Source of the DNA: Kondoa subrosea
Taxonomy: Eukaryota
NCBI GenBank assembly: GCA_039545335.1
Contig: BCIN01000011.1
Coordinates: 310,001 to 347,280 of the forward strand
Direction of reading: 5' to 3'
Length of the DNA stretch: 37,280 nucleotides
The notes beneath the pieces were generated by a model that searched no databases, was not told the origin of the DNA, and saw only the letters and a list, made by a program, of their open reading frames with translations. A program made the position numbers and the translations under genes. Positions within the stretch are counted from its first letter, which is position 1, and every line of letters starts with the position of its first letter. Below are positions 11,006 through 36,960 of the stretch, one piece after another.

Positions 11006-14000
11006 CTAAACAGATGGTATAGTAAGTCTTGAGGCTTTCAATGTTCTTTTGAGGCTGTCATAACCTTCGCGTTCTTCACCTAAGTTTTGACTTGCTTTTA
11101 TAGCCTCTTTTGGTTTCAAAAGAGCAGCTGGGCTTGTCCAGATATCTGGTGCTAGACTGAAGTACTGTTCTGATGCGTTTCGCAGCCTGTTCTTGTACAG
11201 CTTAGGCGTAACGATAGTTGGTTCAATGCGACTTGTGCCTTTCACCCAACTTTCCAGCCTAGTACAGAATATCAGCTGACTATACAAGAATGGAATCGAG
11301 ACTTACTTTTTATCCCATGTATATGTGCGAACAAAATCTGGTAATCTGATCAAGCACAGTACAGACATTTTTAGAGGTCAGACTCACCGACGATGCCGAC
11401 TACCAGCTGTTGATTAGTAGTATCTACGCCAACCAACAGACTGTAATCCATAACGTTCATTTTCTCGAGGAACAGTGTATCGTTGTAGAGCGCCATTCGG
11501 AGTAGTTTCTTTGACTCTTCCCGGATGAAAAGAGGAGACATAGCCATCACTAAGGCACTGACAATAAGATATGGCAAGCTCGCGCTAGACAAACTCACTC
11601 TCGGTCAAATTTTCGTCAAGCAGAACTTCCCCTCGCTTGCCGGTCATAGCAACGTGACGATTCCGCTTGGAACCTTTCAGATCGAAGATCTTATAGCGTC
11701 TATTAGTCAAATCTAAAGATCTAATTGTCCAAAGACAAACTTTTGAAACTGTGCGTTCATAGAACAGATTTTCCATGACCAGTACGTCGAGACGAATGGT
11801 CTTGCCGTTTGAGCCAGTGTAGCCTATCCTGAAGAAGCCAAGAACCTTCACCAGAAGTGTGGGCAGCTAAGTCCTATTAGAAAAGCTTGCAGACCGTGAT
11901 TAATTAACTCACATCGTGAAAGAATGCCCGTGACATGTATTCGAAGTATGCTGGAGCAAACCGCAAGAAAGCGTCCATTTCTAACCTGGAGATTTCCTTG
12001 ACCACAAAAGCGTCGTCTGTTTGCGCGGATCAACAAAGCTACTCTGCACAATGCTCTTACCAACCTTTTGTTTTCAGAAAAGCGGAGCCTGATTTGCCTC
12101 CTGAAGCATCCCACTTGACACAACGAGCTACCGATTCGATGAATGATTGCTCGATACCGCAGTTTTTGCGGAGTGCATCAAATTGTTCGGCAAAGAATAC
12201 TTTGCAACTGAACTTGCAAGCTCCTTCTTCGAATTCTGTTTGATTCTCAGAAAAGGGATAAGCAGCATTGATAACACTCACGTAATCTGAAATGCTTCGC
12301 AGCTGGCTTCTTGAGCTGCTCTTCGACGTCCGTGCCATCTTGATAGTCAATCATACCCCAGGCTGAAGCCCGCTCTATTCCATGACCTAGTTCTTCGCTA
12401 GGCATAAAGGTCTCAGTCCGTTCGAAAGACTTGGCAGCCATGTTTTCTGATTCCTTCATCTTGTCTTTATACGCTTTGGACCTGTGTCAAGTGTCAGGAT
12501 TGAATCCGCTAAACATAATATATGTATTTACGCTAGGGTGAAAGCAATAATAGAGGACGGTTCGTCTTCGCGAACAAGAACAGGGTTGTTTTGAAACATG
12601 TGCTCAGAAGCATACCTCAAGTTCGAAATTAGTAGATCAAGCGGCATTTATATGATGATATCTCACAGAGGATATTCAAGAGGTGTGAAATCTGCAGTCC
12701 GATACGCCCACAGGCTAGAAATCGTCTTCATCAACGAGTGTCGTTCCGTGCCGCTGGAGCTCATTTCACTTTCGGACAGATGAGAAAGTCGAGAAGAGCT
12801 AGGTTCTGATTCCAGCAGAGGAGATGCGGGCACCGAAGCTGTATCCGGCAAAGAAATTGCTGCTTCTGATACGTTGTCTTCCGCGAGTGCTGGAATAAGC
12901 TGACTTTCTGAAGCCGCTTCAATGGCAGCAGGCATAGCTTCGACCACGTTGAGAACAGCAGGCACATCATCTGCGATAGCAGAAAGCATAATGGCAGGCC
13001 TTCCTTTGATTGTGAACTCCTCTTCCTCTTGCTCGTCATCAGCGCTACCGTCATCAGATTCTGAACCATCGGAATCCTCCCGCAAAGCTTCGCGAGCATT
13101 AGTGAAGACAGAAATGACGGGATTGAGTTGACCGATTGGCCGTGCTTTCCGATTACGAGCTGTCACGAGCCTCTTCTGGCGATCTCGTTCAGCCTCGCGA
13201 CTCATGCGGTCGAAATGTCTTGCGATGGTAGAAACCCGATTTGATGAGTTGCCCGGAGGAGCTGGCACTTTCCTGCTACCGATTAACCGGACAGCTGCAG
13301 GAGAAGTGGCAACACGATTTTCTTTATTGAGAATAGGCAATCGACTAGTACTGGAGGAGAGCAATTTGATTGCTCTCGCGCGTTTTGCGTCACTGCTGTT
13401 GTCTTGATCGCTTGCTCCGGTTGATCGCTTGTTTGTCTTGACTGTTTGAGAAGTAGAAGTCCGCGGAGGCATGAGAGGACGAGCTCCTTCGCCGGTAGCC
13501 TGCAATTTGGGGATTCTGACATCCGAGCGGACACGCCGATACACAGATTGCCGAGATGACTTGCTGCTGGAGATCTGTCCGGTAGAGGATGTTGCTATAT
13601 CTAGATGTTCCAATGATCTAGTAGCATCTTCTTCTTGCTCTACTGGTCTTGCCCTGGGGACCAATCTTGAGATATCCGTTTTGTTGCGTCTCAGGGAAGG
13701 TCTTGAAGAGAGTGCAGGCCTGACATCCGGAGGTGTTTCTTTAGCGATTTCTGTCGACGCTTCAGAATCGAACCTTTTGACAAGATTCTGGATATTGTTA
13801 GATTGTCTAATTCGACGCGCTGTATTATACGATTTGGGCGACTTCGAGTTTTGAATGTCGAGCTCGCCTTCAGAAGCTGCACTTTGCTCTTCGGAATGTC
13901 TGCCACTTGTTTCAACTTTAGTGGGAGGCTCTGCATGTACAGTCGAATCGCTGTCTTCATCTTGATCATCCGCAGAGGTCTTATCCCCAGAGATGGAAGG

Positions 14001-17000
14001 TACTGCCGATGATGTGATACTTTCGCTAACCGCGGTGGATGTCGAAGCTCGAAGTGGGTTGGCTAAGCTACCAAGTTGTGCATCAATAGCTTCAAGATTA
14101 GCTTTGGTGAGAGTCAAGATGGGGAGATTCGTGTCAAGGGCAGGCGATTCCAAGCTCAGAGCAGCTAGATTGCTGGAAGACGAAGATGACAAAGGCAATC
14201 CTTCTATATACTCCTTCTCTTCTAGAGGCGTTGCAAGGAGAGAAGGTGGTTGAAGTCGGCTGTCAGGCGAATTTGGAACGCTGGAATCAGAGAAAAGTCG
14301 CTTAAGCTGATTGGTGGTAAGTCGGCGGAAGTCTTTCTCGGTAGGTAAGAATTTCTGTTCGAAGGCAGTAAATTCTGCATCCCATTCAACTACCCGATCT
14401 TGCAGTAATTTACGAACTCCGCTTAGCGCGAGACCGCTTGAGTCTTGAGCATCGTCAGTCACTTGTCTAAGCAGGTTTTCGATATTCTCCTTTTCTAGTT
14501 TTGCTCGACGACTGATATCTGACATAGCGAGACTTGCTGCTTCAGTCTTTTCTGAACCGACCAAATCTATGCTGAAAGATGTAACCCTTTGCATAACAGA
14601 TGCCCAGTAAGCTGAATTGCGCGCGGAGATGCTTTCCATTTCTTGTTTGCGCAGCCGAGTCTTGATTTCGCGTCTAACCTTGAGATGAAGCCGAGGCAGT
14701 AGTGCATCTGCAACGTCTACAGTTTCGGTGTAGAGGCGCACAGTCCAACCTTTCAACGCAAAATAGCGCTGCTGACCTTCTTCGTGTAAATTATGGGCGC
14801 AGAACAATGGCAGTGAGATAGGAGCTGAAGAGGCAGCTGGAGATTCGTCAGTTGTCGAGGGTTGTATAGCAGGACTGCTAGGCGTAGAGGACTCTGACTC
14901 TTTTTTGGGTGGAGGCTGAGGTATGATAGTGCGAGTGCCCATGGAGGCAGGATAGAAAGATAATTGAAGATAGCGAGCGAAACTGTACTTCCAGGTCGAT
15001 TCGCTCATGGCGGTCAGTCTGCTGTGATGGTGGCAGATTCCGCAATAGGATCGCATATAGATACGTTCGTGGTCGAGCACCTTATCCCAACGCTCAATAA
15101 CACAAGTCACACGCCGAGTCCCGTGGACGTAGACCCGGTAGTGTGATTGAAGTGGTTGTTGGCAGCCGGAACTCTGGCATACCAGAGCCGTTGAAGCGAC
15201 ACAAGCCTCCAGCCATTGTCCCAGCGTTTCATCGCCATCTCCGTAGAAAGTCATCTTGCGCAATTCGGGTTCAACGCAGGATTTGTGGGTTGCACTGCTG
15301 ACTACAGAGTACAGTACTAGCATACTTGTCTGTTGTCGAGGATCGAGAATAAGGTTGAATCGTGAACGATACAAATCGAAAGCCTGAGGGTTTACACATC
15401 AGCGCTGAATCATCTGAGATCCTGTGACTCACATCAAGAGCATCAGCATATTTGTCCTTCGCTACTTCTAGCTGACTACTTAGTTGTACGAGATCCTGGT
15501 CGACCTTGACGGGATTGGGAGCTAGTTGTACAACGGCATCTGTTCTGTCTTCTGGTAGTGAGTTTTCAGAGAGTGTGCTGGCTATACCACTAGATGCTAC
15601 ACTAGAATTGTCTATCAAAGATGCAGCGGAAGAAGAAGTTGTTGAGCTATCGGAGCCAATGTCTCGATTCGAAGCCATAGATGCATCCGTGCTCGATTGT
15701 TGGCTGATACTGGCCACCTCAGATGATCGTTTTGACGCCGTTTCGGACTGCAATATATCTTCGGCTTCCTGATCAGCTCGCAGTTGTTCGAGATGACTAA
15801 GATTCGCATCTTCAGCTTCGATTTGTAAGAAAGGGTGCGGCGGTGGTGGCATGGTGAAAGGACTTATGGATAGTATATTGGATCTGAAGGGACTCAGAGT
15901 CTGCCTAATCAACTTAGACAGATCTTCGGCCGACGAAGGAAGCTCTGCGCTTTCTATTCGCAAGCGATCTTTGCTGGACATGCGAGCAGGATACTTCATG
16001 ACGGACAGCGGATCTTCGCCTTCCAAGAGATGAGCATGCTCGTCACTGAATAGATGCTGCTCAAGTTGCAGACTGGTCGAAACCAAGAGCATGAACCTCA
16101 TGATGTTTTTGATTTTGATTAAAGTTTGCATGGATCCGCCGCGAAGGACGATTGTAGCTCCTAGCTCACGATGACAGCCTTCGAAGCACATGAGTGTTTT
16201 CCTTCGACCAGGAATAGCTGCATGATCGAAAGTTTGGATACGAAACAGTGCACATCGACCGATTCTTGGCTCCATCGCTAGCCGATCCATAGATGAGATA
16301 ATATCAGATTGAGTAGATCTGGCGACCGCCTGCATGACAGAGGATTTGACATTGCGGGCAACAGCTACTTTTGCTGCATGCAAGTATTCTAACGCAACTC
16401 CAGAAACGTTCCGTTCGACCAAAACTATGTGAGGACGCAAAGCAACGATGCGATCTACCATCTTCCGCAAATATTCCTTTTCCTGTTGCAGGAGTGGCTC
16501 CAGACTCATCAATTGATGAGATGCGTCGGGACGCTGATACTCCAAAGCCATAGAAAGTAGCATCACTCGAGGATTATGCTTCTTTCTTGTCATCTTTTTG
16601 TGTAATACATTCTTTGTACAGACCAAACCATCGACGTATTCACTATCCTTGGGTGTTCCGCCTGGCATCTTCTTAATCTTAATGTAAGAACGTACATCGA
16701 TAGAGTCGCCAGATAAGCGTGGATCATGCTTTACGCTTCGAGTTGCTCGTTGTAAGGTGCCTGACAATATCGGAATCCAAGCTTTAATGTTTGGAACGTC
16801 ATCTTGCCGCAACAATTGCCTTAAAAGACGCTCGCCAAATCGCAATTGCACTGCTGTCATATCCGGTTCGCTAGAAATACTGTCTCTTCTCTGTCGACCT
16901 TGCTGAAGTCGGCGATTTGATAGCATGCGGTGAAGATCAGACGAATCCACGCTATGAAGCTGATCGTAAGGCTGATCTGGTAGCCCTTCGTCGGCAGCTT

Positions 17001-18927: not shown

Positions 18928-20827
18928 TTATTGCACATGTCTCGAATCTCGCTTCAAGCTTCCTTTGAAAGGAGTATCAGGAAACCTTGAGATCACATGA
19001 AAGATTTCGTTTTTGAGTTCAGCGCAACTAGACGTCTCTCTTAGCTGTCATCGTTCGGAAAGAAGAGACACATACTACAAATCCAACGGCAGATCACTTG
19101 GTGCTGTACCAAATGGTTGCTCGATAGCGGATGCTATGCCCTCAATACCCAGAAGGACCTGCCAAGATTGTCATTATCCCGGTGACACGGCAGTCACGAA
19201 AAACGAACGCAAGAGAAGGCAGTGACAAAAGGGATCATCTTCCAGCTCATCTATCGCTCAATCAGCAACTCTCAGAAGTCAACAGCGCAAAATTCAAACC
19301 TGATCAACAAGGCAAAGAGGAAGAATGAACAGATACATGGTGACACTCTGTTTAAGATGGATACCATAGCTTCGGGAAATCAGACCGCAGGACAGCAAGG
19401 TCTATGCGTTACTTACCTTGTAGGGATACTTTGTCGGGCTAGTCATCCGCTTCAGGCGATTATGTGTAAGAATGAAGAGCCGGCCTACCGAGACGTTCTA
19501 CCGTACCAAGCTCGTCATTGAGGGCATTTACTAGGCCGCAGCTAAAGTTGTAGCCGCTGCACAAATGAGTCAGCTTAGCAGACGCCAACAACAGTAACAT
19601 TACTCACGCTGGTCCAGTGCCATCAAAGTGACCTCTGGCTCGGAAGGTAGCGAGTTGCATCTGCATGTAATGAAGTATAGCCAGAGGCAGAGGAATTGAG
19701 GGTCGTTCCAATTCGTTTCTAACCCAAATGATGCTTCTTTCAGATACATCATCCTCGTTTACATCAGGGCTGTTGACGTCCAGCGGAGAAGTAGCTATTT
19801 CGCTAGCTACTGTTCCATACGCGTGGTGACCGTTGATTTTGCTGCCAAAACCATCGCCAACTACTTTCTGTAGTTACTCGCAATGAGCAACCTAATGCAC
19901 GAAGTTATTGAGTTCATCTACCTGAAAATCTGCTGGTATAAGCGATCGCAGGTCATCGTAATCGCTGCCGAACTCATTTCGAACATGGTGCTTCGCTATT
20001 CAACTGTCATCATTGATATACTAGCAAACAAATGCGAAAACCTACTGGCAATAACAAAAGCGACAGCTAGTTTGAGAAACGATCTCTTCTCCCTTTGGTC
20101 ATCTTCATTCCACTTCCTGCTTCTATAAGGATTTCGACCCTCTTCCGAAGAATCTTGTTCCATACTGAGACCAAGATTGATCCAAACATATCGAGCAAGA
20201 GTTCGAGAAGTATTGCTCATTGCACCAAAAGTGACTCGACTAGCTTCCCATCGCTGAAAGGAAGATGTGCTAGAACAGCATTACGATTTGGATAGTAAAA
20301 CTTTGTCGAAACTTACTTTCGAAAGACAACCAAGAGGCCGACCTGAGACATTTACGAGTCGGCTATAGCCTATAAATTATGGAAAGACATACAATGACCG
20401 TCATAAGAGGTCTGGAAGCACATGAGCGATCACACGGACATAAGCCAAGGACGGAACTTACACCACATTGTTCGTCAGACCGAGCTGCTTGTCATACAGC
20501 AAATCTGCCACGCTGACGCAGACGCTCCATGCTGTAAACCATATGACCGCTTTCCATACTCGGATGATAGCAGAAGCTTTAAGTCTCCACACGTCCTTGA
20601 ACCAATATACACTCGAGAGCCTTTCACGAGTAGCTGGCGATGCATCAGAGAAAGTTATCACATATGATAAGATGCGAAACAAACAGTAGCTGAAAGCAGA
20701 CAAGATAAAACGGGAATGAGCTCAAGACCTTCTGCACAGACATTTGAATGCATTACGCTTTCTCGGCGGTCAACAGATCTCGCAACGCTTGAATAGGCTC
20801 CGATACGGCAGCAAGAGTAGAAGACAT
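18928..20827 (-). CDS. Bestrophin / UPF0187 (RFP-TM) anion-channel family protein
   Basis: Only small fragments appear in the ORF track because of about 13 introns. Spliced product contains NNVVPLMTVIVGLLVVFRNTSSFQRWEASRVTFGAM, KHHVRNEFG, VERLARQSIPTSYGIHLKQSVTMYLFILP and VLLGIEGIASAIEQPFGTAPSDLPLDLYC. Stop TAA 18928-18930. Confidence 0.88.
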
Positions 20828-21045
20828 ATGGGATCTGCAAGAAGCAAAGACCTGGATCAAGGGAAAGAGTGTACTTTCCAAAATCCCGTTTTTTGGTCGA
20901 GGCGCGTTGTCACAATACCACGAGCTGAATATACTTGCACCTTAGGCCTGCGTTAATTCTGCTGTGATTTGACGGACGCAAGAGGAGAGAGCTCTATAGC
21001 CGGCCAAGCAACAGCGGGGGATTAATTATCAGCTGGAAGTGCAGC

Positions 21046-22920
21046 ATGAAGAGATGTAGGCCAGCGGTGGGGCGCTGCAGTGCTAGGACGATCCCTCGGC
21101 AATTGACATACCCTATGCTCTATATCCTATCACCTCCTGCCTTGAGCTTGTCTTCTTCAAGTTGTCTCCAATTATCAAAGTACAACTTGCCTAGGCAGAC
21201 GATAAGCAGTCGAGCTTTCTCTACTACGAAGGGGAGGCGCGAAATGGGGCCGACAGCTCTATATGAGCAAAAAATACAAGATGGGATTCTTCGGCCAGAC
21301 GAATATCAGCGGACAGTAGTCACAAAACTTCAATCACTCCACGACGAGCTTGTCAGCTTCAATCCTCCTCCTGTACCAGAACCTATTGAATATTCTTCCG
21401 TCGTACGTCTTGTTTCGACAGAAAAGATAGGTGTAGCTAACTGGTATGTTTCAGTTTGGCAAATTACTTGGTAGAACAGTTGCACCACAAGCGCCTGAAG
21501 TACCAGAGAAGACACCAAAAGGAATCTATCTGTTCGGAGATGTCGGTATGCTATAGCGTTGTTGACCTTTGTCTTTCTCTCAATCTCATTGATCTACCTA
21601 GGTTGCGGAAAGACAATGCTTATGGATCTTTTCTACGAATCGTTACCTCCATCTATAGGCAAGAGTAAGAAACGAATACACTTTCATGCTTTTATGGAAG
21701 ATGTTCATAAGCGGAAGCACAAATTAGATCAAGCGCACAAAAAGGGAGGACAAGATTTGATAGTATCGATAGCTAGACAGCTGGCTAGGGAGTCTGAGGT
21801 ACTCTGTTTCGACGAGTTTCAAGTACGTTAAATACGATATGGCAAGTCTAAGGATCTGAAGCTGACTGTTGTTTCAAAGGTGCTAGATATCGTTGATGCT
21901 ATGATACTAAAAAGGCTCATCGAATCACTACTAGGCTACGGAGTAGTCATCATCTTCACCTCGAAGTATGTGTCCACGTCTCGCAATCTCGGTCTTACAA
22001 CTAAGTCTGAGTCTTAGTCGACACCCAGACGATTTATACAAGAACGGCATACAACGGAAATCCTTCATTCCGTGTATAGAGCTTATCAAGCGACACTTTG
22101 TGATAGAAGATCTTGATTCTGGAACCGACTACAGGAAAATACCTCGAGCTCTTTCCAAAGTCTACTACGATCCCATAGAAGAGCATCGAACGGAATTCAA
22201 CAAGCTCTTTGATGGTCTTACGCACAATGAGAATGTCAAAACGGATAGAACAGTCACAGTTTGGGGAAGGGAGGTGTCTATACCTGAAAGCACAAGCAAA
22301 GTTGCTAGAATGACCTTTGCGGATCTCTGTGGCCGGTCACTCAGTGCTTCAGATTATATGGAGATCACACGGACATTCGATACAATATTTATCACAGACG
22401 TTCCCAAACTCACTTTGGGCGAGAAAGACAAGGTGTGTTGCATTCTGGTTAGATACGATCCAAGACTCAGTACAGTATTAGGCCAGGCGGTTCATTCTCT
22501 TCATTGATTCAGCCTATGAGAGCAAAGTCGGTCCGAGTTTCCTTCATTTGCAGGATGTTAGCTAATTTGTCTGCCAGACGAAGCTCTTTTTCTTGTCAGA
22601 AGTGCCGATAACAGAGATATTCTCAGATAAGGCGCCTGGAGAAAGAGAAATCAGTGACGCGATGCGTGCGACCATGGACGATCTGGTGTGTTCCTTGCCA
22701 TCTTGCATACTAGCAATTGCTGAATCCTGTAAAGGGCTTACCCGTCGATGTGGTCACCTCTTCATCAATGTTCAGCGGAGACGAAGAAGTGTTTGCATTC
22801 GCCCGAGCAGTAGTACGTGCGAAGCCAGTCTTAGGAAGTCCTGTACTCATTGTCTACCTTTAGTCTCGCTTAACAGAAATGAAGACAAAATTCTGGAGTG
22901 ATTACTCCAAATCAGCATAG
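21046..22920 (+). CDS. AFG1: AFG1/LACE1 (ZapE-family) mitochondrial ATPase
   Basis: [22 protein letters not shown] (Walker A, split by an intron), RIHFHAFMEDVH, VLCFDEFQVLDIVDAMIL (Walker B), [52 protein letters not shown]. Arg/Ser-rich presequence-like N-terminus. Start could be 21046 or 21115. Confidence 0.93.
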
Positions 22921-23028
22921 TATCGTATGATCATGGGTTTTGATGTTGCAGAGTTATGAATGCAGTTGGTATGCATAAAGGTATACACTTGAATATGATC
23001 GATATCAGGGCATGCAAAATGCAGTAGT

Positions 23029-26000
23029 CTATCTCCCGCCTCGCTTCTTGTCCAATGCACGAAGCTTCTTCTTCGTTCTCTCGTACTCCTTCTCCTCGGA
23101 GCGTTCGGCATTGAGACCAGCCTTAATACTTGTAATCTGTTGTAGCGATCAGCGATGGTCTTTACATTATAACATGCAAAACATGCCTTCTGCTTGTAAG
23201 CAGCATCTTTCTCCTGCCTAATCCTGGACTGCTCATTCGCCAAGAACTTGTTGTCCTTTCGCAGTTCTCTGACGGCTCCCTTCTTCTCCTTCTTGAGTAG
23301 TGCTTTGAGCTTGGCAGTCTCTGTACGAGCCGTATCGGGATCGAAGGCATGTTGGCCAGGTTTATAATTGTCTTCAAATTTGGGCAGATAAGTAGCAATA
23401 GGTACAGCGCGGTGCTGTTGCAGTCGAAGAGGCTTTCGGGAGGATCGAGCAAGTTTGAGCATCCTTTCGACATTGGATCGAAGCTTCTCGAGCGATGTCT
23501 TACATCAAAGATTAGCTTTTGATAATCGGAGCACAGCAGAAGAAGCACCTGTACAGGGGAGGGAATGGCTTTGCCATTCATACCATGTATTATCATTTGC
23601 AGAGGTTCAAAGAGTTCTAAGAAAGCCTCCGATGAGGCATAAAGTTGGGCAAATCGGTCAAGAAGAGAGAGTGCTGCATTGAGGAGATTTTGCTTCTCAT
23701 CTTCCGTTACCTGCTTCGGATTGGCTGCAAGGAGAGCTGTGATATCAAGCTTGCTGACAACAGCTGCTTCGGATCCTTTGACCAATTTGAGCTGAGTGGT
23801 TTCTTGCCTAAAGGCATCTGGAACCGGAAAATTGCCGGGCAGCGTTTCCGATGACTTGAAGCTATGCGGAGAAAGGAGGAGAAGCGAATTGACCAAGAAA
23901 TTGAGCACCTCTGGAATCACACGTTTCGAGATCGATTCGTACTATTGGCACTTCAGCATGGCTTCGTTTCAAAGTTACAACCATACCTGAAGGCAAATTC
24001 CACAAAGCATCAAGCCACTTACTATGTCTGATGCCCTGCGAACACGACTTTGTCCCAAGTATTGACATATTAAGAGGAGCGCTGGTGCTACAACTGGGTG
24101 ACTGAAATCAGAAGTAGACCAGACCAAGCCGATTAGACGTAATACGGCAAGTTCTGAAGCGCCCGGCCATGTTTTGGCATCCATAGAAAGCGGTGATTTG
24201 GTAAGACCACGAACAAAGTTCTTTTGCATGATGCTCAATTTCGACACAAAGTGTTGAGCAGCCGAGAGAGGATAAGAGTTGGAAAGAGAGAAGATATGAG
24301 GAGCCATGATGTTGACGAGTCGGAAGGACTGTTGAGATGCGGCAACATGTATAACATGATCAATCAGTACTCCTAAGAAGATCTATTCATAAAGTCAGCC
24401 AGCGGAAGGTCAGTCAAATCATGGAATTTGCTGACAGCGAGTTTATCCTTGTTTTGATCTGCCAATTGAGGATGATACAGCACGCGAATACGATCAATGA
24501 CTACCCCAAGTTGATCTTCTGGCACATGTGAGATCGTATCAAGAAAGTCTTGATGCGTTGCAGGGCATTCGTAGGTAAAAGCCACATCAACAGAAGCCTT
24601 CGCTCCAGACCTGCCCTTCTTGCTTGACTTTGCTACCAATTCTTCGGGTTCCTCGGTAGAAGCGATTTCTTCTTCACCTTCGAGATCGTCTAGCAAATCA
24701 TCTTCCTCACTGCCGTCTTCGTCTTCCTCTTCCTCTTCTTCATCGTCGCTGCCTTGGATTGATCCAGCTGCACCAGATATCTCTTCCGACAAAGTGAAAG
24801 CACCAGATTCAGTAACACCGCCGCCCAAACCATATTGATCCTCTTCTTCTTCAGGACCAAGATCGAAGTCGTCTTCTAAATCATCGCCTTGAGGCATCTT
24901 TTTCCTCCTTTTCTTTCTTTCCGATTCTTCATCCTCTGAATCTGCATCTAATCCAAGCATTCGTTTCTTTCTCCTCTCCTCCTGCTGTAGTAATTCTCTT
25001 TGAGCTTGCAGAGCTCTCTCTTCTTCAGTTTGCAATCTATCTTGAGGACGTGCTCGGCCTTCAAAAGCTAATTCTCGAACATAGCGGTCGAAATCGTCTT
25101 CCTCTTTTTCAACTTCAGCAGCTTCCGGTGATTCTGGTTCAGGAGAAGCAGAAGGAGATCCAAGTATCTTGGCAAGTAGAGCTCGATTAACACCACTTTT
25201 CGAGGTTGAAGTTTCAGTTTCCTTTGATTCGGTTTCTGGACCTTCTGCGCCGTCGTCTTCGGAATCAGATTCAGGTATTTGCACATCATCCTTCTTTGCT
25301 TTGGTAGTAGATCGTCCACCAAGAGCTGCGCGTAGAGAGTCAAGATCATTGTCCAGTTCTTGACGGAGATCATCGTCTTCATCTTTAGCTCGTTGTCGTT
25401 CGTACTTTGAGAAACACAGTCAGCAAATCGTACCACTATATCATATATCTGTGAGAACATACCTTGTAAGCTTTGGATTTGGCTACTACTTCTTCCATGA
25501 TTTCTGCTCGAGAGCGCTTCCTAGGCGGCTTGATGGCAGAAAGTTCAGAAGAATTACGTCAGACGAAGTAGAGTACACACCTCGTCTGAATCTCCTTCTC
25601 GTAGCTGGTCTCTAGCATATTGAGCGAAAGCTTGTTCTTGAGGTAAACCAACATCTGAATCACCAAAGGCTTGCTGATCGCTCAGAGATTTGCCCAAGTG
25701 AGTCAGTTCATCTTCTTCTTCCAGATTGAACAATCCACGCTTGCCAACCTGACCACCAGCTGCAGTAGCTCTCTGCCTTTCTCTGGTAAAGCGTTCCAAG
25801 TTCTTTTCTTCCGGTGTCAAGTGAGGATTGTCTTCACCGAATCGACGATCAATTATACCACCTTGTCTGTTGCGATCCATTAATTCAGGTAAGAGCGTCT
25901 TCCTTCGCTGTTCGATAGCAGTAGATTTGGACATTGAAGGTTTTCCAGCAATCTTAGGTTGACCGCCTTTAATACGGGAGTCCTTGTTTGAAGCGACAGC

Positions 26001-26195
26001 ATGCTTGGGTCGAATAGTCTTGAAATCAAAGACATTAAACTCTTCAGAGATGCTTGCAAGTTTTTTGGCTCGACTCTCTGGATCACGATCTGGTCTTTTG
26101 GTCTTCTTCTTAGAGCCCTTCTTCACATCTGATCGCTGCAGACCACTTGCTCGAAGCCTGCCCTTGAGCTGCGATAGCTGAGAACCGCCTGCCAT
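23029..26195 (-). CDS. NOP14: Nucleolar protein Nop14 (SSU processome)
   Basis: MAGGSQLSQLK, GGIIDRRFGEDNPHLTPEEKNLERFTRERQ, KRSRAEIMEEVVAKSKAYKYERQ, FDRYVRELAFEGRARPQDR, IGLVWSTSDFSHPVVAPA, KKEKKGAVRELRKDNKFLA. Six introns, the last GC-AG (23137-23186). Stop TAG 23029-23031. Confidence 0.95.
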
Positions 26196-26476
26196 GGTTT
26201 CGATACAAGCGAGCGATAATTTCTATCTTGCACTGATACCACAACATCACGGCATGAGTGATGGATGTCCTGCAGTGCTCTACTGTCTGTTTGAACACGG
26301 AGGCTTCATCCTCACGTTTGTCTTCGTTGGAGATGCAACAGTTTGCAAACTTCTCAAGCAATTGCAAAATTGAAGTAGTAACAATGTACCGCGACGCATG
26401 TGTTCTTTCAACGCGCAGATGTACTCAGACTAACGCCTTGCAACGCGCAACTCATAATAGCGATTTCCTAGCGCAT

Positions 26477-26482
26477 TATAAA
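26477..26482 (+). promoter_or_regulatory. Candidate TATA box for the small Lys/Glu-rich gene
   Basis: TATAAA about 300 bp upstream of ATG 26780, followed by a pyrimidine-rich leader. Positional evidence only. Confidence 0.3.
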
Positions 26483-26779
26483 CGTGTTGCCTGGCAAACC
26501 CTCCGACTCAAGTCCGAATGTTGTCCTTCAGCTCTAATACAATCTGTCATGAACTGCTTCCATCGGTTCTCTAGGCTCTGACACTTTTGCCTTAGTCGCT
26601 TTGTGCCTGCAAACGGAAGCATTTAGTGCTTTTGCCCGAACTACGTCAATTTGGTGTTGACGTTTCAGGTGGGCCTTACCTCTTTCGTATTTTTGTATTT
26701 CTCTTTCCTCTTCTTCCTGTACCAAACTCCTTCTCGCAAACTTCCATCTCCAACCACTACATCTACATCTATTCATACA

Positions 26780-27232
26780 ATGGGTCTCTTCCACAAAGAC
26801 GGAGCTGAGAAGCAACCTACTCAACCAACAGTGGTTGATGGCGCAGGAAACGCAACTGTGAGTTGCCGAAGGGCCAGTCTTAATGAACTCCGAGCTCATT
26901 TGCTTCTTCCATCTTCCTGCTCAGACTCTCAGCGGTGAACACAATGCTCATTCCAAAATGGACGAAGTCAAGGCTCGCGAAAAGCAAATCGAGCTTGACG
27001 AGAAGCGGTTCGTATTCAGTGGATACACGTGTCATGTTCTCGTTGCTTATTGTGTCGTGGCATCAATAGCAACAAGGAGGACAAGAAGGAAGCTAAGAAA
27101 GAGGCTAAAGAAGAGCGCAAAGAAGCCGAGAGGGAATTGAAGGAAGCTAAGAAGGAGGTAAGTCATCCAGCTGTTCGTCTTTATCTTTTATACTGATTGA
27201 TATTGTAGGAGAAACATGCCAAGAAGCTCTAA
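26780..27232 (+). CDS. Small (90 aa) highly charged Lys/Glu-rich orphan protein, hydrophilin-like
   Basis: Exons 26780-26857, 26925-27007, 27070-27157, 27209-27232 joined by canonical GT-AG introns give MGLFHKDGAEKQPTQPTVVDGAGNATTLSGEHNAHSKMDEVKAREKQIELDEKRNKEDKKEAKKEAKEERKEAERELKEAKKEEKHAKKL*. Start context ACAATGG follows a CT-rich leader. Confidence 0.75.
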
Positions 27233-27549
27233 ACGAGTGAATGAAGCAATCGTCTTGTATTATAGCCTGAAATGTGATCGTTCGAATATGCTCTGTACCT
27301 TGATTGATACGCTTTCCCTATGTCACACCTCTGCGTACAAGTATATACTGGAAGAGCATTTCTGCTGACACATCAGCTCGACCCAATTAGAACATACGTG
27401 GTTTTCCATAGCCACACGTGTACAGTAGTCCTATTACCTGACTCACAGGATACAGCTGTACTGAGATCAAGCTTTGGCGCTGCAGTCTTTGTTTCAGCTC
27501 AATTGAACTTCGAAGTTGTCGAAGGACCACCGCAAATCATCAAGCAACT

Positions 27550-28432
27550 ATGGCAGTCAATTGGGCAATGTTGGACAGCAGGGGCGAAATACAGCCGTTG
27601 GAAGGTGTGCTGCACACAATCGCTGCAATCTGCCTCCTTTGAATCAATTGCAATAGGGGAGAAGATCTTCTTGCGTGTCCCTTCGTGCTTGATCCTTGTC
27701 TCGTCTTTTGTGTTCCTTCTCATTCATTCATCCATTCAGTACGGATGCTACGCTCCAGCCAATGAAGAATTCTTCCGAGCCCTCGTCAGCCAAACCGCTA
27801 AAAGCGCATGGCACAAGCTATGTAACAAACAAGCGTTTAGTCTTCGTTTCTGCAAATGCATCTGCCCAGAGTGGCTCAAGTGGTCTCGGAACACTGTCTT
27901 GTCCTCTGAATCACGTTCAAGATGGCAGATTTGTTCAGCCTTGGTTGGCTGCAAATTACTGGGAATGCCTTGTGAGACCAGTAGCTGACGGAGGTCTGAC
28001 TGTATGTACCTGATAAGCCAGAATATCCCACCGGATGACTTATATATCTTTAAAGACACATCAGACGCTGCGCCTAGACTTCAAGGAAGGAAGAGGTTTC
28101 GAATTCACTTCAGCAATGGAAGAAGTCAAGAGTCGATATCATGAAGAGCAAGGATCACGGCGTGCAGAACCTGAAGCGCTACGTGCGCTTGCCCGTCTTT
28201 CGACCTAACTCAATACTGATCTAGCACTACAGCCCTTTATGAGCCTCAATCGCCTAGCAGTGCAGATGCGACTGTTCTCCCTGACAGTGCATCCTACTTT
28301 CCGTCTTCCGCTCCAGCCAGACAACCGTCAGCAGTAGATTTGCAGGCAGCAGAAGTAGCAAGGGTTGCAGAATCGCAAGAATTGGATGAAGCGCATCGAG
28401 GGCTTCCACCTAGCTATGATGCAGCAAGATGA
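27550..28432 (+). CDS. WBP2-like PH-GRAM protein with PY motifs (fungal UPF0664-type)
   Basis: MAVNWAMLDSRGEIQPLEGEKIF, GTSYVTNKRLVFV, TLSCPLNHVQDGRFVQPWLAANYW, LRLDFKEGRGFEF, then EALPLYE and GLPPSYDAAR*. Four introns; stop TGA 28430-28432. Confidence 0.82.
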
Positions 28433-28447
28433 GAGCGCGTTGTACGA

Positions 28448-29561
28448 CTACAAGGGTTTGCGATGCTGTTGTAATTTATTTATGCGAAGTTTGTCTTCTT
28501 CGAATTTGCTTTGCAGTTCGGCCAAGTCTAATCATATGATCAGACGAGATGTCAATTAATGAAGCAGCGAGACTGCACTCACTCTTCGCTCTAGATGCTT
28601 CTTTCTTGGCCTTGCTTTCGGTATAGAAATCACTTCCAACCTGCTTCTTGCGCCGCTTCGCTGACTTCTGACCGTCCTCATCTTGTACGCCTTCCAAGAA
28701 CTTTTTACTTGCGACACCGACACTCGCTTTCCCCTTTCCGTACAGTCTCTGCTCTTTGTCAAGGACTGTCCCCGGTCGAGCAGATCTCTGCGTTTCGACC
28801 AAGTCAACTTTACTCCTCCCTTTCTTTCCACCGCGAGTAACAGTCTGCCATTCTCCATCATCTTCTCCCTCCGAATCAAAGGTGCGCGTCGTAGCTGATT
28901 TCACTCCTTCTTCCACTGCTGCTTCTCTCCGTTTTCTTTTCTTTGATTTAGATGCTTCTACCTGTTCTGCTTTTGCTTGAGATGGTTTCGAAGGTGCGTC
29001 GAATTGTAGCATCCAGGCATCTGTGTGTTTCTTTACTTCTTCTAGATTCGGTCGAGCGATAGTATACAGTTCAGGATAGAGGAAGCCTGCCGATTTAGGC
29101 CATGCTATTGATTGTTTACAAGAGAAGATCGCAGAGAGATGGGAAGGGGAGGAGAAATGGATTTCAGTTGTGCTTGATTCCAAAGCTTGATCTGCTATTG
29201 TTCCTGCTTTGATATGCGAGAAGAGCGGCGGAACAGCTTGTTTGCCTTTGTTCTTTGGATCTGCTATCCTTTCGGTACGCCAGAGTGTCTCTTGACCGGT
29301 TTTTGAGGAAGGCAGAATAACTTCAGTAACAGCTTTCTTTGCCAATTCAGGGTGATTCAATTCCAGTAATGCTTCGAAAGCGGTCTTGATGTCCTTGGAT
29401 GAGGATCTCCAAGGAATATTGCAAGCAAACAGCATAGAATCGTCATCCTTTGATGCTCTGACAAAAATTTGGTGTTGTGCTTTGGAATGGCCAAGAGCAG
29501 GTATACCAAAGCTCAATGCAGTAAAGCCACCTGCTACAGCGAGCATCGTTCCTTTAGACAT
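28448..29561 (-). CDS. RRP7: Ribosomal RNA-processing protein Rrp7 (SSU processome, UTP-C)
   Basis: HQIFVRA...MLFACNIP (degenerate RRM), VKKHTDAWMLQFD, EDDGEWQTVTRGGKKGR, SDFY, and after one intron NLAELQSKFEEDKLRINKLQQHRKPL*. Stop TAG 28448-28450; the ORF-track end at 28476 reads through the intron. Confidence 0.85.
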
Positions 29562-29699
29562 GTCACCAGAGCACAGGATTCGGTATTGGCAGTATGGAAC
29601 AAACGATGGGCTATTACTAATCGAAAACAACGCGCAGCATCACTACAAGAAAGCGCAAAGAGGTGCACGCTCTCAGCAAAAGAACATCTGATGTGTCCT

Positions 29700-30742
29700 T
29701 CAGGGAGTCTTTTCAAATTGTGCCCAGGTACAGACTGGATCGCCCTCCATTCCTTGTAATTTCTCGACATTGAGCAAAGTATAGCCCAGCTTGTCGCGGT
29801 AATACTTGATCTGTATTGATCTTTAAGTTCAGCACAGGTGTAGAAGGGGAAGAGAGGACCGACATTGGCCTCTTTTGACGCTTCAAGGCAAATGCAGGTG
29901 TTGTCTCTCTTTGCCTGTTCCTCCAGAAGAATTAGTTAGAATCAGATACATGGACACCTAAAGGCTGACCAGAGATTCCACATAAGCTAGCAATGTTTTG
30001 CCCATTCCTTTGCCTTGACAATCCTCCCGCACTGCTAAATGAGTAACATACCAGCTATTCAGCTTTCGATCGCCTGGATAGGTCTTCTTTGACAGAGATT
30101 CTACGTAAGGAAAGTACTGTTCATCACGTCATTCCAGTTATGGACGATGGAAACGGATAATAAGAACGGACTGTCTCTTCGACAAAAGTATGTCTTGCTG
30201 GATTGCGCGACTTGGACAGCTCAGCATGCGCAGCATACCACTTTCCTCTGGACTGAGGTGACTGGCCAGGCATTGTCCCAGGAGGATAAACGAGCATGAC
30301 AGCTTCGTTTGAATTGATAGTGTATATTTGACCATTCATAGTTGCGTCCTCTATAGAACGACAGAGACCGGCTTCCCAGAGATCTGCACTACAATTTAAA
30401 GAAGAGCCTGACGCTACTAATTCGTCTTACCTGATGCATCTTTGTACTGTCAAACAGAGTCCGCACTTTCTCAGCTGCAGCAGAGCAGACAGTAATGACA
30501 CGCACGACTCCTCCGTGCCGGATAGGTCCAAAGGTTTCTAGCCAAAGCCTGAGCCAGTTGCTACATGTATTTCGAGGGATTTACCAGCATGCAGAGCTTC
30601 TCCCAGAACCTTGGCTAGATTACGAATTCGATCATCTGTAGGATTGCATGAGTCGTTGGAGTTGACACGGACAGTAAGAACAGAAGAGACCAGTCAAAGT
30701 AGACGTAGACTCCGAATCGATAGAAAATGCAGAAGTATTCAT
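29700..30742 (-). CDS. GNAT-family N-acetyltransferase
   Basis: Spliced product (about 7 introns, including a 16-nt exon 30431-30446) contains SWYVTHLAVREDCQGKGMGKTLLAYV (acetyl-CoA-binding motif A) and CICLEASKEANIKYYRDKLGY (motif B). Stop TGA 29700-29702. First exon is less certain (weak donor GTCTCT). Confidence 0.85.
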
Positions 30743-31043
30743 TGCCCGCGAAGAAATAGTAGAGTCTGGGACGCCAAACCTTGACAAAATAGATGAGAGA
30801 AAGTCAATTAGACGAGAGAGAAAGCCTATTGCAGTCGTTGCAGCATAAAACGAGTCGAAAGCACATGTCATGCAAGACCGGGGAAATGACTCGATAGACA
30901 CGGCATGGATTCAGCCATATAAGTCATTTATGGCCGCACTTCATGGCCTTAGTGGAGATGAAAGACTCCTGCCTCAGATTTACTGAAAAAGAAATGAATA
31001 GTACGCGACAAGGCAAGATGCTAAATTCCAATCCAATTTCTGA

Positions 31044-32057
31044 TTATACAATAGTTTCCAGCTCTTGAGCATAGCCCAATGTGGCGGATATGATCTTTTC
31101 CTTGTCGAGCAGCATGCTAGTTGCAGGTAAATCGGTTTTTGCAGCTTGGAATGAAATGATTTGAGTAGAAGGGTTGACGATCCATCCAGGTCTCTGTACA
31201 CGCGATACTTTGAGCCTACGTAATTTCATCAATCATTTCACGTACACTCGAGGCGAAAGCCATTAGGTCATTCAGTTCAGTGAAGAATAGCAATGTTGCC
31301 GCATCTCGTATAGGCAAAGTAGCGTATGCCTTCTCTCCACACGAAGCAATCTCATTTCTGAATAAGACTGTGAGCTTTTATCGATAGTTCAGATCGCTAA
31401 ATCTCACCTGACAGTCGCCATCAAATCGCTTAAGAACACCTTGTACTCTTCGCTAGGTGGCTCCCTGCTCGCTTCCCAGATCTTTGTAAAGCTACCTTCC
31501 ATTAACCATTTTTCCAATTCGATTGGATAAGTAACGGAAGGATCGCGTAAGAGGTTTGCATTTGAATCAGCAGAAAGAGATTCGATTAGAGTATGGAAAG
31601 AGCCAATTTCATTTCTGCTGAGTAGCAGTAAGAGATGAAGGCCAGTAAGACGTGCTCGAAGATCAGAAGAAGGGAGGGAGGCCGAATAGAAAGGTGCGAG
31701 TTGAGCCAGATAGCGCTCGAAAGATGGGACGTCGTTGATTTTTAGTGAGAGCAAGGCGCAAGCTTCGAGGATAGAGCCTGACAGAGCACAATCACTTTGA
31801 ATAGCAGGAAGGACAAGTCATATGCACTCACGAGCTTGCTGAACTTGCTCGTCTGTATGCGATTCGTCGAGAATGAGTAGCTTGTTGTGTAGTAGAGCCA
31901 TCTGTACACAGGGAAGTCTCGCCATCAGCTACATGCTCCAACTGTTATTGAGCCGCAAGCAACGCACTTTGGCCTGTTTTATCGCAGACTTGATGGCTGT
32001 CGCATCTTTGTTCGCTGCTGCTTGTAGACCAGAGTATGCCTGTGCTAGAGATGCCAT
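31044..32057 (-). CDS. RPN12: 26S proteasome lid subunit Rpn12 (PSMD8)
   Basis: ARSILEACALLSLKINDVPSFERYLAQLAPFY, GLHLLLLLSRNEIGSFHTLIE, YPIELEKWLMEGSFTKIW, LMATVRNEIASCGEKAYATLP and terminal LGYAQELETIV*. Four introns. Confidence 0.95.
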
Positions 32058-32176
32058 CACTGGAGAGCTTGTGCTGGAGAACACGAAAGAGAGAGAGAGG
32101 CAAAGCGTCGTCAGCGGATGACCTTTGATTTCTTGCTTGCCAGTCTTCCCTACACAGCGATCCATATATATACACA
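32058..32176. promoter_or_regulatory. Putative bidirectional promoter RPN12/PRE3
   Basis: 119 bp between divergent ATGs. Contains (AG)6 at 32088-32099, GGCAAA at 32099-32104, TTGCC at 32137-32141 and ATATATATA at 32164-32172. Confidence 0.7.
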
Positions 32177-33403
32177 ATGGCAAGCTTGAAACCTGGTGAA
32201 GGTCCGCATAATGCATCATGCAGGATCCAGATCTCTCGCTAATACCTGCATTCTGTGTGTTGCAGTCAATTTGGGTTTGTCAATCTCAGCTTCTGATCAT
32301 GTCATGTAGAGCTCATTTAGTACACGTCAATCTATGTAGGAACATCCATCATGGCAGTCTGCTTCGAAGGAGGTGTCGTTCTGGGCGCGGATGTATGTGC
32401 TTGCTTCTTGGGAACTGAAGTGAATATGGCGCTGACACATCTGTGGATACAGTCTAGGACAACCATGGGTGAGATTACGATGGCTCTGTTGACTTGTGGC
32501 TCATAAGGACTATTGCGAGACTATAGGTTCTTACATTGTATGTCGAAACTCGGTCGTCGGTTTGCTGTTGGCTTACTAGCTCTCGCGTATCTAGGCCAAC
32601 AGAGTAACAGATAAGCTCACTCACATTCGTAAAGCCTCATTTTGCCGCGCTATTCTTCGTCGCTGACAGGGATGCTCTGCAGATGATCGAATCTACTGTT
32701 GTCGGTCTGGGTCAGTCGCGATAGTACCAATGCGAGTCTCTCGCTGAACAATATTCGCACAACTTGCAGATCCGCCGCAGATACTCAAGCTGTAGCAGAC
32801 ATCATTCACTACTATGCTCAAATGTTCACCATGCAACATGAAAACACTCCTCCCACCGTTCACTCTATCGCTACCCTTTTTCAAAAGATCTGTTATTCAA
32901 ACAAAGACGCGTGAGTAGGGCAGTTGATATATTTGAAACGGACTGATAAGATCAATTTGTTCTGTCAATAGACTTTCAGCAGGTATTCTAGTAGCCGGCT
33001 GGGATGCCCAATCAGGTCCATCAGTCTTCAACATTCCAGTAGGAGGAGGCATGTTCAAGCAGAATTGGGCAATTGGTGGATCAGGTTCTGCTTTCATTTA
33101 CGGTTACTGCGATGCAACTTGGAAGCCAAACATGCAGAAAGAAGAAACGATGGACTTCGTTAGGAACGCCTTGAGTTTGGCAATGAGCAGGGATGGATCT
33201 TCGGGAGGAACGATCAGAATGGCTGTCATCACGGAAGGAGGTGTCGAGCGAGTCTTTGTGAGCTGGATTATTGGCTGTCGCTCCGTGATCTTTGAATTGA
33301 TAATGTTCATCTACAGGTACCGAATCCTGAACTACCTGACTTCAACGGAGGAACAATGGGAAGTTTGAGCAACAGGAAAATGATCAAGGAGGATGATGAG
33401 TGA
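32177..33403 (+). CDS. PRE3: 20S proteasome catalytic subunit beta-1 (Pre3/PSMB6)
   Basis: Exons 32177-32201, 32266-32274, 32340-32392, 32453-32468, 32527-32537, 32595-32628, 32683-32710, 32770-32910, 32972-33257, 33317-33403 give [66 protein letters not shown]...AIGGSGSAFIYGYCD...LAMSRDGSSGG. Thr1, Asp17 and Lys33 are present. Confidence 0.96.
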
Positions 33404-33673
33404 GCTTAAATCTCATTCGCCGTTCCTCTTTGATCTAATAGTCGATATTTCAGCTCCCCGGACTGGCGATCTCCGATCTCTGTACCATTACGTAGTACGA
33501 CTGCAGCTGCATAGACCTAAATGAAGCATTAGCAAAACATTACCTTGTTTCTTATCAAGTCAGCGTATTCCAGCTGTGCTGATACTGGGTCGACAACGCT
33601 ACCGAAGTATCCATAAAGCAAAGCCTGGGCTTGCATAGATTTTATTCTCTCTTATTGACTAGGCGTTCCTGCT

Positions 33674-34882
33674 CTATAATTCTACACGAGCATCCTTTTT
33701 TACTGTTGCTGCTCCGCTTGGCTGCCCAGTTCCCTTTCTCTCTAGATCTGAAGCATACAAAGCAGCTCCAACGCTTGAAGTGAACAAGACAGCTAGTCCA
33801 ACTATGGGAACCAGCTGTAATGCGAGAGTGGTTGCGCCAAATCTAGAGACCAGGAATAAGCAAGGTAAAGGTGAACAATAAGGAAGGATTGGTACGCGGT
33901 AAGAGTACCATGGTTATTATGCACGAAGGATGCTCGCTGTTCTTTTGTGAACTGCTTCAAGCCAAAGTAGCGGGACAAGTATCCTGGTCCAGCCTTAATT
34001 CCTGCAATACAAAGATAGCATTACGGCCATGCAATGGAGAGGGACGTAAGATAGCTTACCATTGTAGAGTAAGAAAACTATAGTTCCGACTACCGGCACA
34101 GCGTTGAGTGGAAGAGTGATTAAGTATCGAATCAATCCCTCTGTTGAGAACTTATTGAGCGGCTTTGTGATGGTCTTGCCCAAACGCTTGACATCCACAC
34201 CACGTTCTTTGGTCTTGAGTACTTGTCTGCCTTTACCAACGAGCTGATCATGACCTTGCTGCAAAGAGAAAAGAGCCATTAGATTGAGAACTACTCGTAG
34301 TGAAAACAGTACCGCTTACCTGCAACAATACAGCATCGAAGAGTTGATCCTGTACTTCGCTCACGAAGAAGACTCGAGCAACGAATAAGATGATGACGGA
34401 TGATTCTGCAAGGATGAGAGGAACAGCGGCGATGAAGGCCAAAGGACCAGAAATGAAAGCGAGAACAGCGACGTGAGGGAAGTAGGTGAGTATGAACATT
34501 GCGGCAAGGACGACAGCGCTGACAATCAAAAGATTCAAGATGACTGGCGCGACCTAGATAAGACAATGAGCATAGAGTAGAATATCAAATCTGCTGTTCA
34601 TACAGATTTATAGAGACTTGGATGTCTGCGTCACACATTCAAGTCAAGTCAGGACCATCCAAACACTATGCCCAGGGTAGACTCACGTAGCGAAGTATAT
34701 GATGCCTCTGAAGGGATAGATGTAGCCTGTATAGTGTTTCTATGAGCTCTGTATAGCATCCAGGTTTATTAAAGCTGACCTCCGGATTGTAGAGCCTGCT
34801 GCCCAAGCTTAGCAGCGGTACCAATCTCTTCCTGGATGACATTCTTTGCAGTGTCTTGAATGCTTTTCTTGTTGTTCGACAT
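33674..34882 (-). CDS. EI24-domain multi-pass membrane protein (Lds1/Lds2/Rrt8-like)
   Basis: GGYIYPFRGIIYFATHPSLYK, MFILTYFPHVAVLAFISGPLAFIAAVPLILAES, DQLFDAVLLQQGHDQLV, LIRYLITLPLNAVPVVGTIVFLLYNGIKAGPGYLSRYFGLK, AFGATTLALQLVPIVG...SSVGAALYASDLE. Six introns; stop TAG 33674-33676. Confidence 0.85.
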
Positions 34883-35002
34883 CTTGCTCGTGGTTTGAGG
34901 GAAGGCGGCAGCAAAGAACGAAAAAAATAGACAATTCGAAGTGCGTCATTTAGACAAAATGCACAGAGGTTTCACAAGCAGTACAATCGTACATCAGTAA
35001 AC

Positions 35003-35700
35003 CTAAAAGCCAAAGACTCTCTCATCCTCATGACCAAACTCCTTTGAAGCGACGCCGCGAAGGCAAGCTGTATCGTCCGCAGGAGGATGCAAGTGTTGTT
35101 TGATCTGGTCTCTGTCAGGATGACCAGTTCCAAGCTTCCAATCTTGGTCTTTGTCTGGATCTGGGAAGAAGATGGGTCTGGAGACAGATTCCTTTAGGGC
35201 AAGACTTTATAATCCATAGATCTAGCTCGTCAGAATACTTGTGCGCTGTCTGTTATAATTCATCAAACATTAGAATATCAGCGCGTTCGATCACAGTCGA
35301 TCAGTCTGATCTGTGTCTTGTCTTCGAGATCATCAAAGATGGCGTGAATTGGTCGATAATGAGGAGCTATGAGATGGGCAGCTTTCTTCTGCAGGAAAGA
35401 ATGTAGATCTCGCTGATGCCTGATCCGCCCGCGATCAGATTGATTGTATCGAACTGCTTGTCTTCTTCAGAGATGGTAACGTTGCCCTTACCGTTGTAGG
35501 TAGTCTCGCCAAGAGGGCCTTCGACACATCTTATTATCCTCATTAAGTGAAATGTGCATTATCACGTACCTCTGCAGTCTATTTCTTCGCCTGCTTTCAT
35601 GACGACGAGATATTTGCCGATAGTACCACCAAATTAAACCTGGCATCTGCCTCTGGTAATTAGACTTTCACAAGCAGATCCATTGTACCATCTTCATCTC
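35003..35700 (-). pseudogene. Decayed C-terminal FAD/NAD(P)H-binding module of a nitrate-reductase-like (cytochrome-b5-reductase-fold) gene
   Basis: Fragments in order: DEDGTMDLLVKV*LP (TAA 35660-35662); frameshift; GGTIGKYLVVMKAGEEIDCR|GPLGETTYNGKG; TINLIAGGSGI|TPHY; DKTQIRLIDCDRT; frameshift; DILMFDEL* (TAA 35253-35255); DWKLGTGH...IKQHLHPP; no CGPP; end RVFGF*. Intron remnants at 35519-35569 and 35367-35413. Confidence 0.8.
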
Positions 35701-36187
35701 GTGCCTTCCGCATGATTCGTAGCAAGCCTGGTAGTCGTTCGATCTAAGGGTCCAGCGCGAGCGCAGTAGCGTGACATGCTATGATAGAGAGTTTGACAAA
35801 GCGGTAATAGCGCGGGGAAGTATAGCTTTTTGACCAGTAGAGCCTGGTAGCTGGCGAATTACAACGGTGAGCACTTGCAGAAGAGCGCCATCGCAGCGAG
35901 ACTGATGTTCAGGACAAGGTAAACGTATAGACCGGACGATCTTGGAACAGGTGCCGTCAAGTCAAAGCTTAAAACCGTCTGAAAGCACGACAAAAGAACC
36001 TCCGACCGGATGGATAGACTTCTTGAAGCTTCGTTTGAATGCGAAGTTTGAAATATTAGCAGCTACGAGCCGCAATTGGAGCTCAACATCTGCTCGACTA
36101 ATTTGTCTTTCCATGTTCCAAGTAGAAAAGACCTTAAGATCGGACTGAGCGGAGGTGCTATAGCTGGGCTAAAAAGGTGGAGAGAGG

Positions 36188-36960
36188 TCAAAATCCCAGT
36201 ATTGAACCACCGGTCACACTGTCTGTACCGTTCCAAGGAGGAGAAAGGAAGACCCATTCAAGAAAGATGTTTTCCGCTCCAGTTGTTCCGTCAGATGTTT
36301 CTCGAGGCAGAGGGATAATGAAGCGCAGATTCTCGCGAGCTATTGAAGTCATTCGCGTGTAGGTTTCGACTGGGATGACGGCGTCTAGTTTCGTTGTTGA
36401 TTTGGCTGAAGCATGGTAAGCTTTCCAAAGGGCAGAAATCCCCTCAGCGGAAGGTGCAGGATGCCTTGTGAGAAGAATTTTGTAGGTCTATCATGTCCGA
36501 CAGAGGCTGTAGATGCCTTGAGCTCGGCTGAAGTTCGAGAGCGCAGTGTTGACCTTGATGTCGCTTTTGCTCCTCCTTTGATCTATCCCGCTAGGCAATG
36601 AAGGAGGTGCAACAGCAGAAGGGATCTGCTGCAGAGATGAATCGCTTGATAGCTTGGAAGCGCCGCTCGCTGTTTTGATTGACTTGACTTTCTCATTGAC
36701 GAGCCTTGTCCTTCAACGTCTGCAAGTCTACTCCTTTCCTAGCATCGAAATTGAGCAACATGTTTACCAGATAAGGGATTCGCTCACGCCTTCGCTGCAG
36801 CTTCCAGCGCCTGCCCATACTTCTCTTCATATTGCTGCCGTTTTTGAGCTATTCTTTCCCTTGAGCCTATCAATGCCTCTGGCACGCCAGTGGTCAAACA
36901 TCGGAAGCTGCTGCATCTCTTGCAAGATAGGACTGGTCGATATAACAGGCTTGTGATCAT
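36188..36960 (-). pseudogene. ATP11: Frameshifted, 3'-truncated ATP11 (mitochondrial F1-ATPase assembly chaperone)
   Basis: Presequence-like MITSLLYRPVLSCKRCSSFRCLTT, then YEEKYGQALEAAAKA|KG, IK|PLSDMIDL, ISALWKAYH, DAVIPVETYTRMTSIARENLRFIIPLPR and GAENIFLEWVF. Frameshifts near 36705 (premature TGA 36693-36695) and near 36480. The conserved C-terminal half is absent. Confidence 0.8.

Follow-up and report, generated by a model that had tools for sequence, protein, structure and literature searches.

Subtelomeric gene families usually hold niche-adaptation genes. A departure from this pattern is TLO (MED2) of Candida albicans, which is single-copy in related species and is described as having 14 copies, 13 of them telomeric and one internal (PMC4335505; bioRxiv 2022.08.15.504027). 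How sequences reach several chromosome ends has been described in Pyricularia, where failing telomeres are reported to capture subterminal sequence duplicatively (PMC8381367). Among mobile elements, Penelope-like elements (PLEs) deficient in endonuclease are described as attaching to telomeres (PMC6431247).

The window analyzed here, a stretch of 37,280 nucleotides, forms the right end of contig C11 of Kondoa subrosea, in an assembly of 18.9 Mb and 27 contigs. Close to its right edge lies a broken copy of ATP11. The Atp11 protein, whose role is known from yeast, is an assembly chaperone of the F1-beta subunit, and there is usually one ATP11 gene per fungal genome. The original prediction, in which the broken gene was the sign of a hidden duplicate or a hybrid genome, overlooked both the position of the window at a contig end and the existence of a nine-copy chromosome-end family of ATP11.

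The ATP11 Pseudogene at the End of Contig C11

The pseudogene and its surroundings are organized as follows, copies being designated here by their contig and, where applicable, contig end.

36961..37280, minus strand: non-coding subtelomeric block upstream of ATP11, up to the contig end
36788..36960, minus strand: exon 1 of the ATP11 pseudogene, with the start codon at 36960; 173 nt, open, aligned to eight paralogues
36739..36787, minus strand: intron 1; 49 nt, GT..AG, of the haplotype common to the C3-left, C2-left and C4-right copies
36554..36738, minus strand: exon 2; 185 nt vs 187, with a 2-nt deletion beside 36696 and a TGA at 36695-36693
36507..36553, minus strand: intron 2; 47 nt, GT..AG
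36235..36506, minus strand: remnant of exon 3 covering codons 121-210; matches PF06644, 1-nt insertion near 36477
35370..35555, minus strand: decayed nitrate-reductase-like FAD/NAD-domain fragment (PDB nitrate reductase 1cne, E 6.5e-4)

The lesions, called against the intact C3 copy, place the TGA after codon 72, and homology to all paralogues stops at 36235, which corresponds to codon 210 of 326. With a stop after codon 72 and codons 211-326 absent, the window copy has no complete open reading frame and is unable to encode the ATP11 domain. The two frameshifts, the premature stop and the two intact introns of the 5' part are as originally predicted. The predicted span of 36188-36960, in contrast, holds only for 36235-36960, the segment 36188-36234 not being ATP11, and what had been described as a missing C-terminal half is indeed a missing 3' part, which amounts to the C-terminal third of the protein (116 residues) and about half of the conserved domain. 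The identity of the gene is supported by its exon 3 frame, which matches the Pfam profile PF06644 (ATP11) with an E-value of 2e-17 over profile positions 105-168 of 271; with 64 bits against a curated cut-off of 22, the copy belongs to the ATP11/ATPAF1 family. Its relatives that bear names are mostly basidiomycete proteins with 40-45% identity (e.g., Mixia, Gautieria, Melampsora).

Read-derived sequence reproduces the lesions. A 284-bp contig of near single-copy depth covers both frameshifts and is identical to the window over 36442-36725, with no differences or gaps, and a 250-kb contig crosses the truncation junction with no differences over 34000-36290. Both read runs stem from a single sample, which may also have yielded the assembly; the comparison therefore bears on consensus error and not on a second strain. 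The broken ATP11 is thereby confirmed as real, its frameshifts being no consensus errors and its truncation no misassembly. Because both introns and the upstream DNA are retained, a processed, mRNA-derived pseudogene is ruled out. Taken alone, the window pseudogene represents ordinary decay.

The nitrate-reductase-like fragment lies within 700 nt of the ATP11 breakpoint, on its inner side. A larger candidate remnant in single-copy DNA spans 35100-36234 on the minus strand, its additional pieces up to approximately 36170 having been recognized by eye only. A cytochrome b5 piece beside the breakpoint received no profile support, and no gene with the full set of nitrate reductase domains was found in the assembly. 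Since no complete nitrate reductase was found, the capture may have removed the front part of this gene, and the observation suggests that nitrate assimilation has been lost. A Mo-cofactor gene at C1-right was considered as the missing half and rejected, as its translation reads as that of a complete sulfite-oxidase-like gene with nothing similar behind it. A plasmid search with the inner flank of the window copy gave no match.

ATP11 Copies at Chromosome Ends

A profile search of the assembly returned ten matches at nine places, all ten candidates having been scored, and the same nine places were returned by a DNA search; these counts are lower bounds. Four copies (C3-left, C2-right, C4-right and C5) have intact frames of 326 codons that are 91-96% identical in protein and match PF06644 over profile positions 61-271 with E-values of 1e-60 or better, while five are broken (C1-left, C2-left, C6-left, C6-internal and the window). 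An intact ATP11 had been expected elsewhere in the genome, the window copy then being the remnant of a duplicate, and both expectations proved right, the window copy being a dead member of a family of nine. A true loss of ATP11 is ruled out by the four intact copies. The C4-right copy has a non-consensus intron 1 donor. The start-codon end and the positions of the two introns are retained in all nine copies, and three of them lack the 3' end; with three losses at the 3' end versus none at the 5' end, the numbers are too small to establish polarity. Across the first 480 coding bases the copies are 85-96% identical, with different flanks, and the window copy differs from the others by 10-12%.

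Every telomere-capped contig end (6/6) carries an ATP11, whose ATG is found 714-4894 nt from the end and which always reads inward, the chance expectation for an ATP11 at one 5-kb end being 0.0024. The survey covered 21 of the 22 ends of C1-C11 and 16 small contigs, with the last 0.9 kb of C5 viewed separately. Uncapped ends carry no ATP11, except C11-right and C5-right. The C5 copy is located approximately 23 kb from the contig end, and part of the distal DNA is unreadable, whereas the dead C6 copy, at 1.215 Mb, occupies an internal position and has a break that adjoins decayed repeats. As the assembled end of C11 lacks a telomere repeat, the window, which is the seventh contig end with ATP11, is only presumed to be chromosome-terminal. 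C6-right and C4-left overlap over 3496 bp at 99.9% identity, so that uncapped ends without ATP11 are probably assembly breaks. These two contigs probably belong to a single chromosome that bears ATP11 at each tip. C15 and C16 duplicate each other in reverse-complement orientation.

The upstream non-coding block is found only next to ATP11 copies, at six places (C3, C5, C2, C6, C4 and the window). Copies common to several ends beside telomere repeats, recombination between paralogues, and the coexistence of intact and dead members are features of subtelomeric families, and all are present here. The nearest relative (86% identity) is represented by three near-identical proteins on short contigs. 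A search for the ancestral locus by synteny did not find it, a metagenome scan yielding one locus of a distant fungus with unrelated neighbors, and a homologue search with the gene neighboring the C5 copy gave no result.

Recombination and Telomere Capture

The alignments indicate that the ATP11 copies are recombinant mosaics. A PHI-type permutation test gave p = 0.0005, the floor for 2000 permutations, in all four sets, with informative sites clustering by topology, and the exon trees are discordant among the copies. Thus, exon 1 and intron 1 of the window copy cluster with those of C3-left and C2-left, whereas its exon 2 clusters with that of C6-left and carries a diverged tract common only to the C6-left copy (tree support 0.99). 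Intron 1 occurs as two very distinct haplotypes.

The regions around the copies also bear marks of exchange and of end repair by duplication, resembling those reported for Pyricularia (PMC8381367). C4-right and C2-right have 2.8 kb in common (90%), and the shared stretch on C4-right holds only the 3' part of a ubiquitin-hydrolase gene, with its intron kept, the gene being whole on C2; this partial gene is probably a footprint of terminal copying. At C2-right, an internal telomere remnant of 14 nt is present at 571-584, the 535 bp lying beyond it have 99.6% identity to the DNA upstream of the C5 copy, and the switch to C5-type DNA falls at a telomere-like microhomology. The C2-right end records two rounds of telomere capture. 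The telomeres of C3-left and C2-right meet the shared block at a common AC, and at C2-left an inverted telomere tract lies 40 nt before the ATG.

Other observations concern the same ends. Inverted telomere fragments near the C2-left (L016 650-674) and C4-right (L013, near the telomere) ends hint at fusion or fold-back events. C1-left is a patchwork in which a piece common with C2-left (98%) is followed by one common with the internal C6 locus (89%), yielding a chimeric lysine-rich ORF (L014 2871-4787, L016 183-633, L019 3991-5260). At C6-left, decayed LTR-retrotransposon-like sequence with integrase domains (L017 73-3291) lies between the telomere and ATP11; it is related to two small contigs, C13 and C14, that almost duplicate each other and carry a 145-bp terminal repeat. 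The telomere at the ends of C1, C2, C3, C4 and C6 is composed of two alternating 10-base variants, and a telomerase reverse transcriptase (RT) gene is found on C3. Isolated internal telomere matches of 20-25 nt occur at three loci (L068 ~2548, L069 ~2533 and L070 ~2481), with no ATP11 or subtelomeric DNA nearby, and one of them could be the telomerase RNA template; an Rfam search of six loci gave no match.

Selection on the Copies

Pairs of intact copies (n = 6) show dN/dS values of 0.15-0.25 at dS values of 0.11-0.30. The ratio of synonymous to nonsynonymous private changes is 17:19 in intact copies vs 37:93 in broken ones (p = 0.044), and that of the window copy, 5:12, is neutral-like. Considered individually, only the C3 copy shows significant constraint (8:2, p = 0.0004), and C2-right, C4-right and C5 do not. 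Because only the C3 copy is constrained on its own and the C4-right donor is non-consensus, fewer than four copies may work.

Origin and Spread of the Family

In all likelihood, ATP11 was spread by duplicative chromosome-end capture, and in the window the breakpoint fell inside the gene. ATP11 would be the shared gene of the subtelomeres of Kondoa subrosea, where a block of approximately 2 kb, comprising the upstream non-coding DNA and ATP11 and reading from telomere to centromere, would have been copied from end to end. The copying would have taken place during the repair of broken or uncapped ends, presumably by break-induced replication or ectopic recombination, with the new ends re-capped by telomerase at varying positions and continuing exchange between ends producing the mosaic copies. 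The F1-beta chaperone would be supplied by one or a few expressed copies, the others being redundant and free to decay. As the inner breakpoint of the window copy, at codon 210, lies inside the gene, this copy probably never had the last third, truncation having occurred at copying rather than by later deletion, and it would have decayed neutrally. Neither genome doubling nor gene loss is needed to account for it. Segmental duplication or gene relocation, two of the options offered by the original prediction, come close to this explanation.

Its headline, in which the copy would be a remnant of duplicate loss after hybridization or whole-genome duplication, is in contrast extremely improbable. 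Although a divergence of 10-12% and the two intron 1 haplotypes might be found between subgenomes, two subgenomes do not account for nine copies at chromosome ends, and the neighbors and control families are single-copy. Segments 1-8000, 8001-16000, 20001-28000 and 28000-36230 of the window, i.e., 32 of the 36 kb to the left of the pseudogene, match only themselves, and therefore they reveal no paralogous block with a second EI24/PRE3. The proteasome profile yielded 28 exon matches, grouped by position into 14 loci, as expected for one haploid set, the ATP-synt_ab profile identified four loci (F1/V1 ATPase), and ATP12 has one; together with the single-copy neighbors, these counts largely refute a hybrid or doubled genome. 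That the lesions or the window copy itself might be an assembly artefact is very improbable as well: a contig end in a repeat region of a short-read-type assembly with gaps invites the suspicion, but the junction and both frameshifts are exact in the read-derived contigs, which rules out consensus error, and copies this similar in coding sequence nevertheless have different flanks. A third proposal, that extra ATP11 dosage was selected, for instance to offset telomeric silencing after the loss of an intact interior copy, is compatible with end capture, as it concerns why the copies persist. It would account for four full-length ORFs whose proteins remain 91-96% identical despite a synonymous divergence of 0.11-0.30, and for the only clearly internal copy being dead. 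We nevertheless find it doubtful, since five of the nine copies are dead, only one copy each exists of ATP12 and the F1 subunits, constraint is not significant for three of the four intact copies when taken singly, and gene conversion from one working copy can preserve others.

The remaining alternative invokes a telomere-type, endonuclease-less PLE that would have copied ATP11 with its introns to the ends via RNA, in trans or by read-through from an element upstream of the C5 copy. This element, located 4.3 kb upstream of that copy and on its strand (L011 1386-5355, minus strand), comprises a PLE-type RT, whose PLE motifs were assigned by eye against the consensus, and a DEDD exonuclease that follows it, and telomere-like 12-mers occur after the last ORF. 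The region upstream of this element recurs at the left end of C7. The inward orientation of ATP11 and the variable, telomere-capped 5' ends fit the published description of such elements (PMC6431247), and PLEs are reported to be able to move intron-containing host genes (PMC8557442, PMC3846280). However, PLE-derived sequence is absent next to the other eight ATP11 copies, which therefore lack framing terminal repeats derived from an element, and the inner junctions of the window, C2-left and C4-right copies hold no telomere-like 12-mer (up to one mismatch). In addition, the element is represented in the assembly by one RT copy and has a stop separating its ORFs, and the host-gene case as published involves an endonuclease-bearing element with terminal repeats. 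No hammerhead-like motif was detected at the copies by a crude pattern scan, which was also blank on the PLE itself. The PLE-based scenario is unlikely. An extension of end capture that we regard as speculative is that the family descends from the internal C6 copy, now dead, and that no working interior ATP11 is left, the cell relying on telomere-adjacent copies maintained by end-to-end copying and possibly seeded by the element upstream of the C5 copy. If true, a required respiratory gene would be kept as a telomere-linked repeat, and a fungal PLE without endonuclease would perhaps have mobilized a host gene.

Comparison with Known Systems

The C5 element resembles the Coprina, Athena and Terminon elements, as described, in its PLE-type RT devoid of an endonuclease, its DEDD exonuclease and its 3' telomere-like repeats (PMC6431247, PMC8557442), and its orientation is that of ATP11, as in endonuclease-deficient PLEs. 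Unlike such elements, the ATP11 blocks have no RT, detectable hammerheads or 3' telomere tags. The Pyricularia/Magnaporthe system, according to the published account, similarly features former telomeres internalized by repair and de novo healing at variable points (PMC8381367). That case is described as being driven largely by MoTeR retrotransposons inserted in telomeres, however, and no MoTeR-like element was seen beside ATP11.

The closest precedent for the ATP11 family is TLO/MED2 of Candida albicans, in which a normally single-copy gene likewise occupies many chromosome ends and has truncated members, an expansion attributed in the accounts available to subtelomeric recombination. The two differ in that TLO codes for a subunit of Mediator, belongs to an ascomycete pathogen and has been proposed to diversify functionally, whereas ATP11 encodes a mitochondrial assembly chaperone in a basidiomycete, with over half of the copies dead and no diversification seen. 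No report of a telomeric ATP11 was found in the literature searched, most subscription papers and supplements being outside its reach. TLO/MED2 is the well-studied core-gene exception, and its expansion has been read as adaptive. ATP11 is present at every capped end, half of its copies are dead and its partners occur singly, a combination which suggests that a core gene may expand merely by being terminal when ends are copied. The family serves as a modest natural control in asking what made TLO expand.
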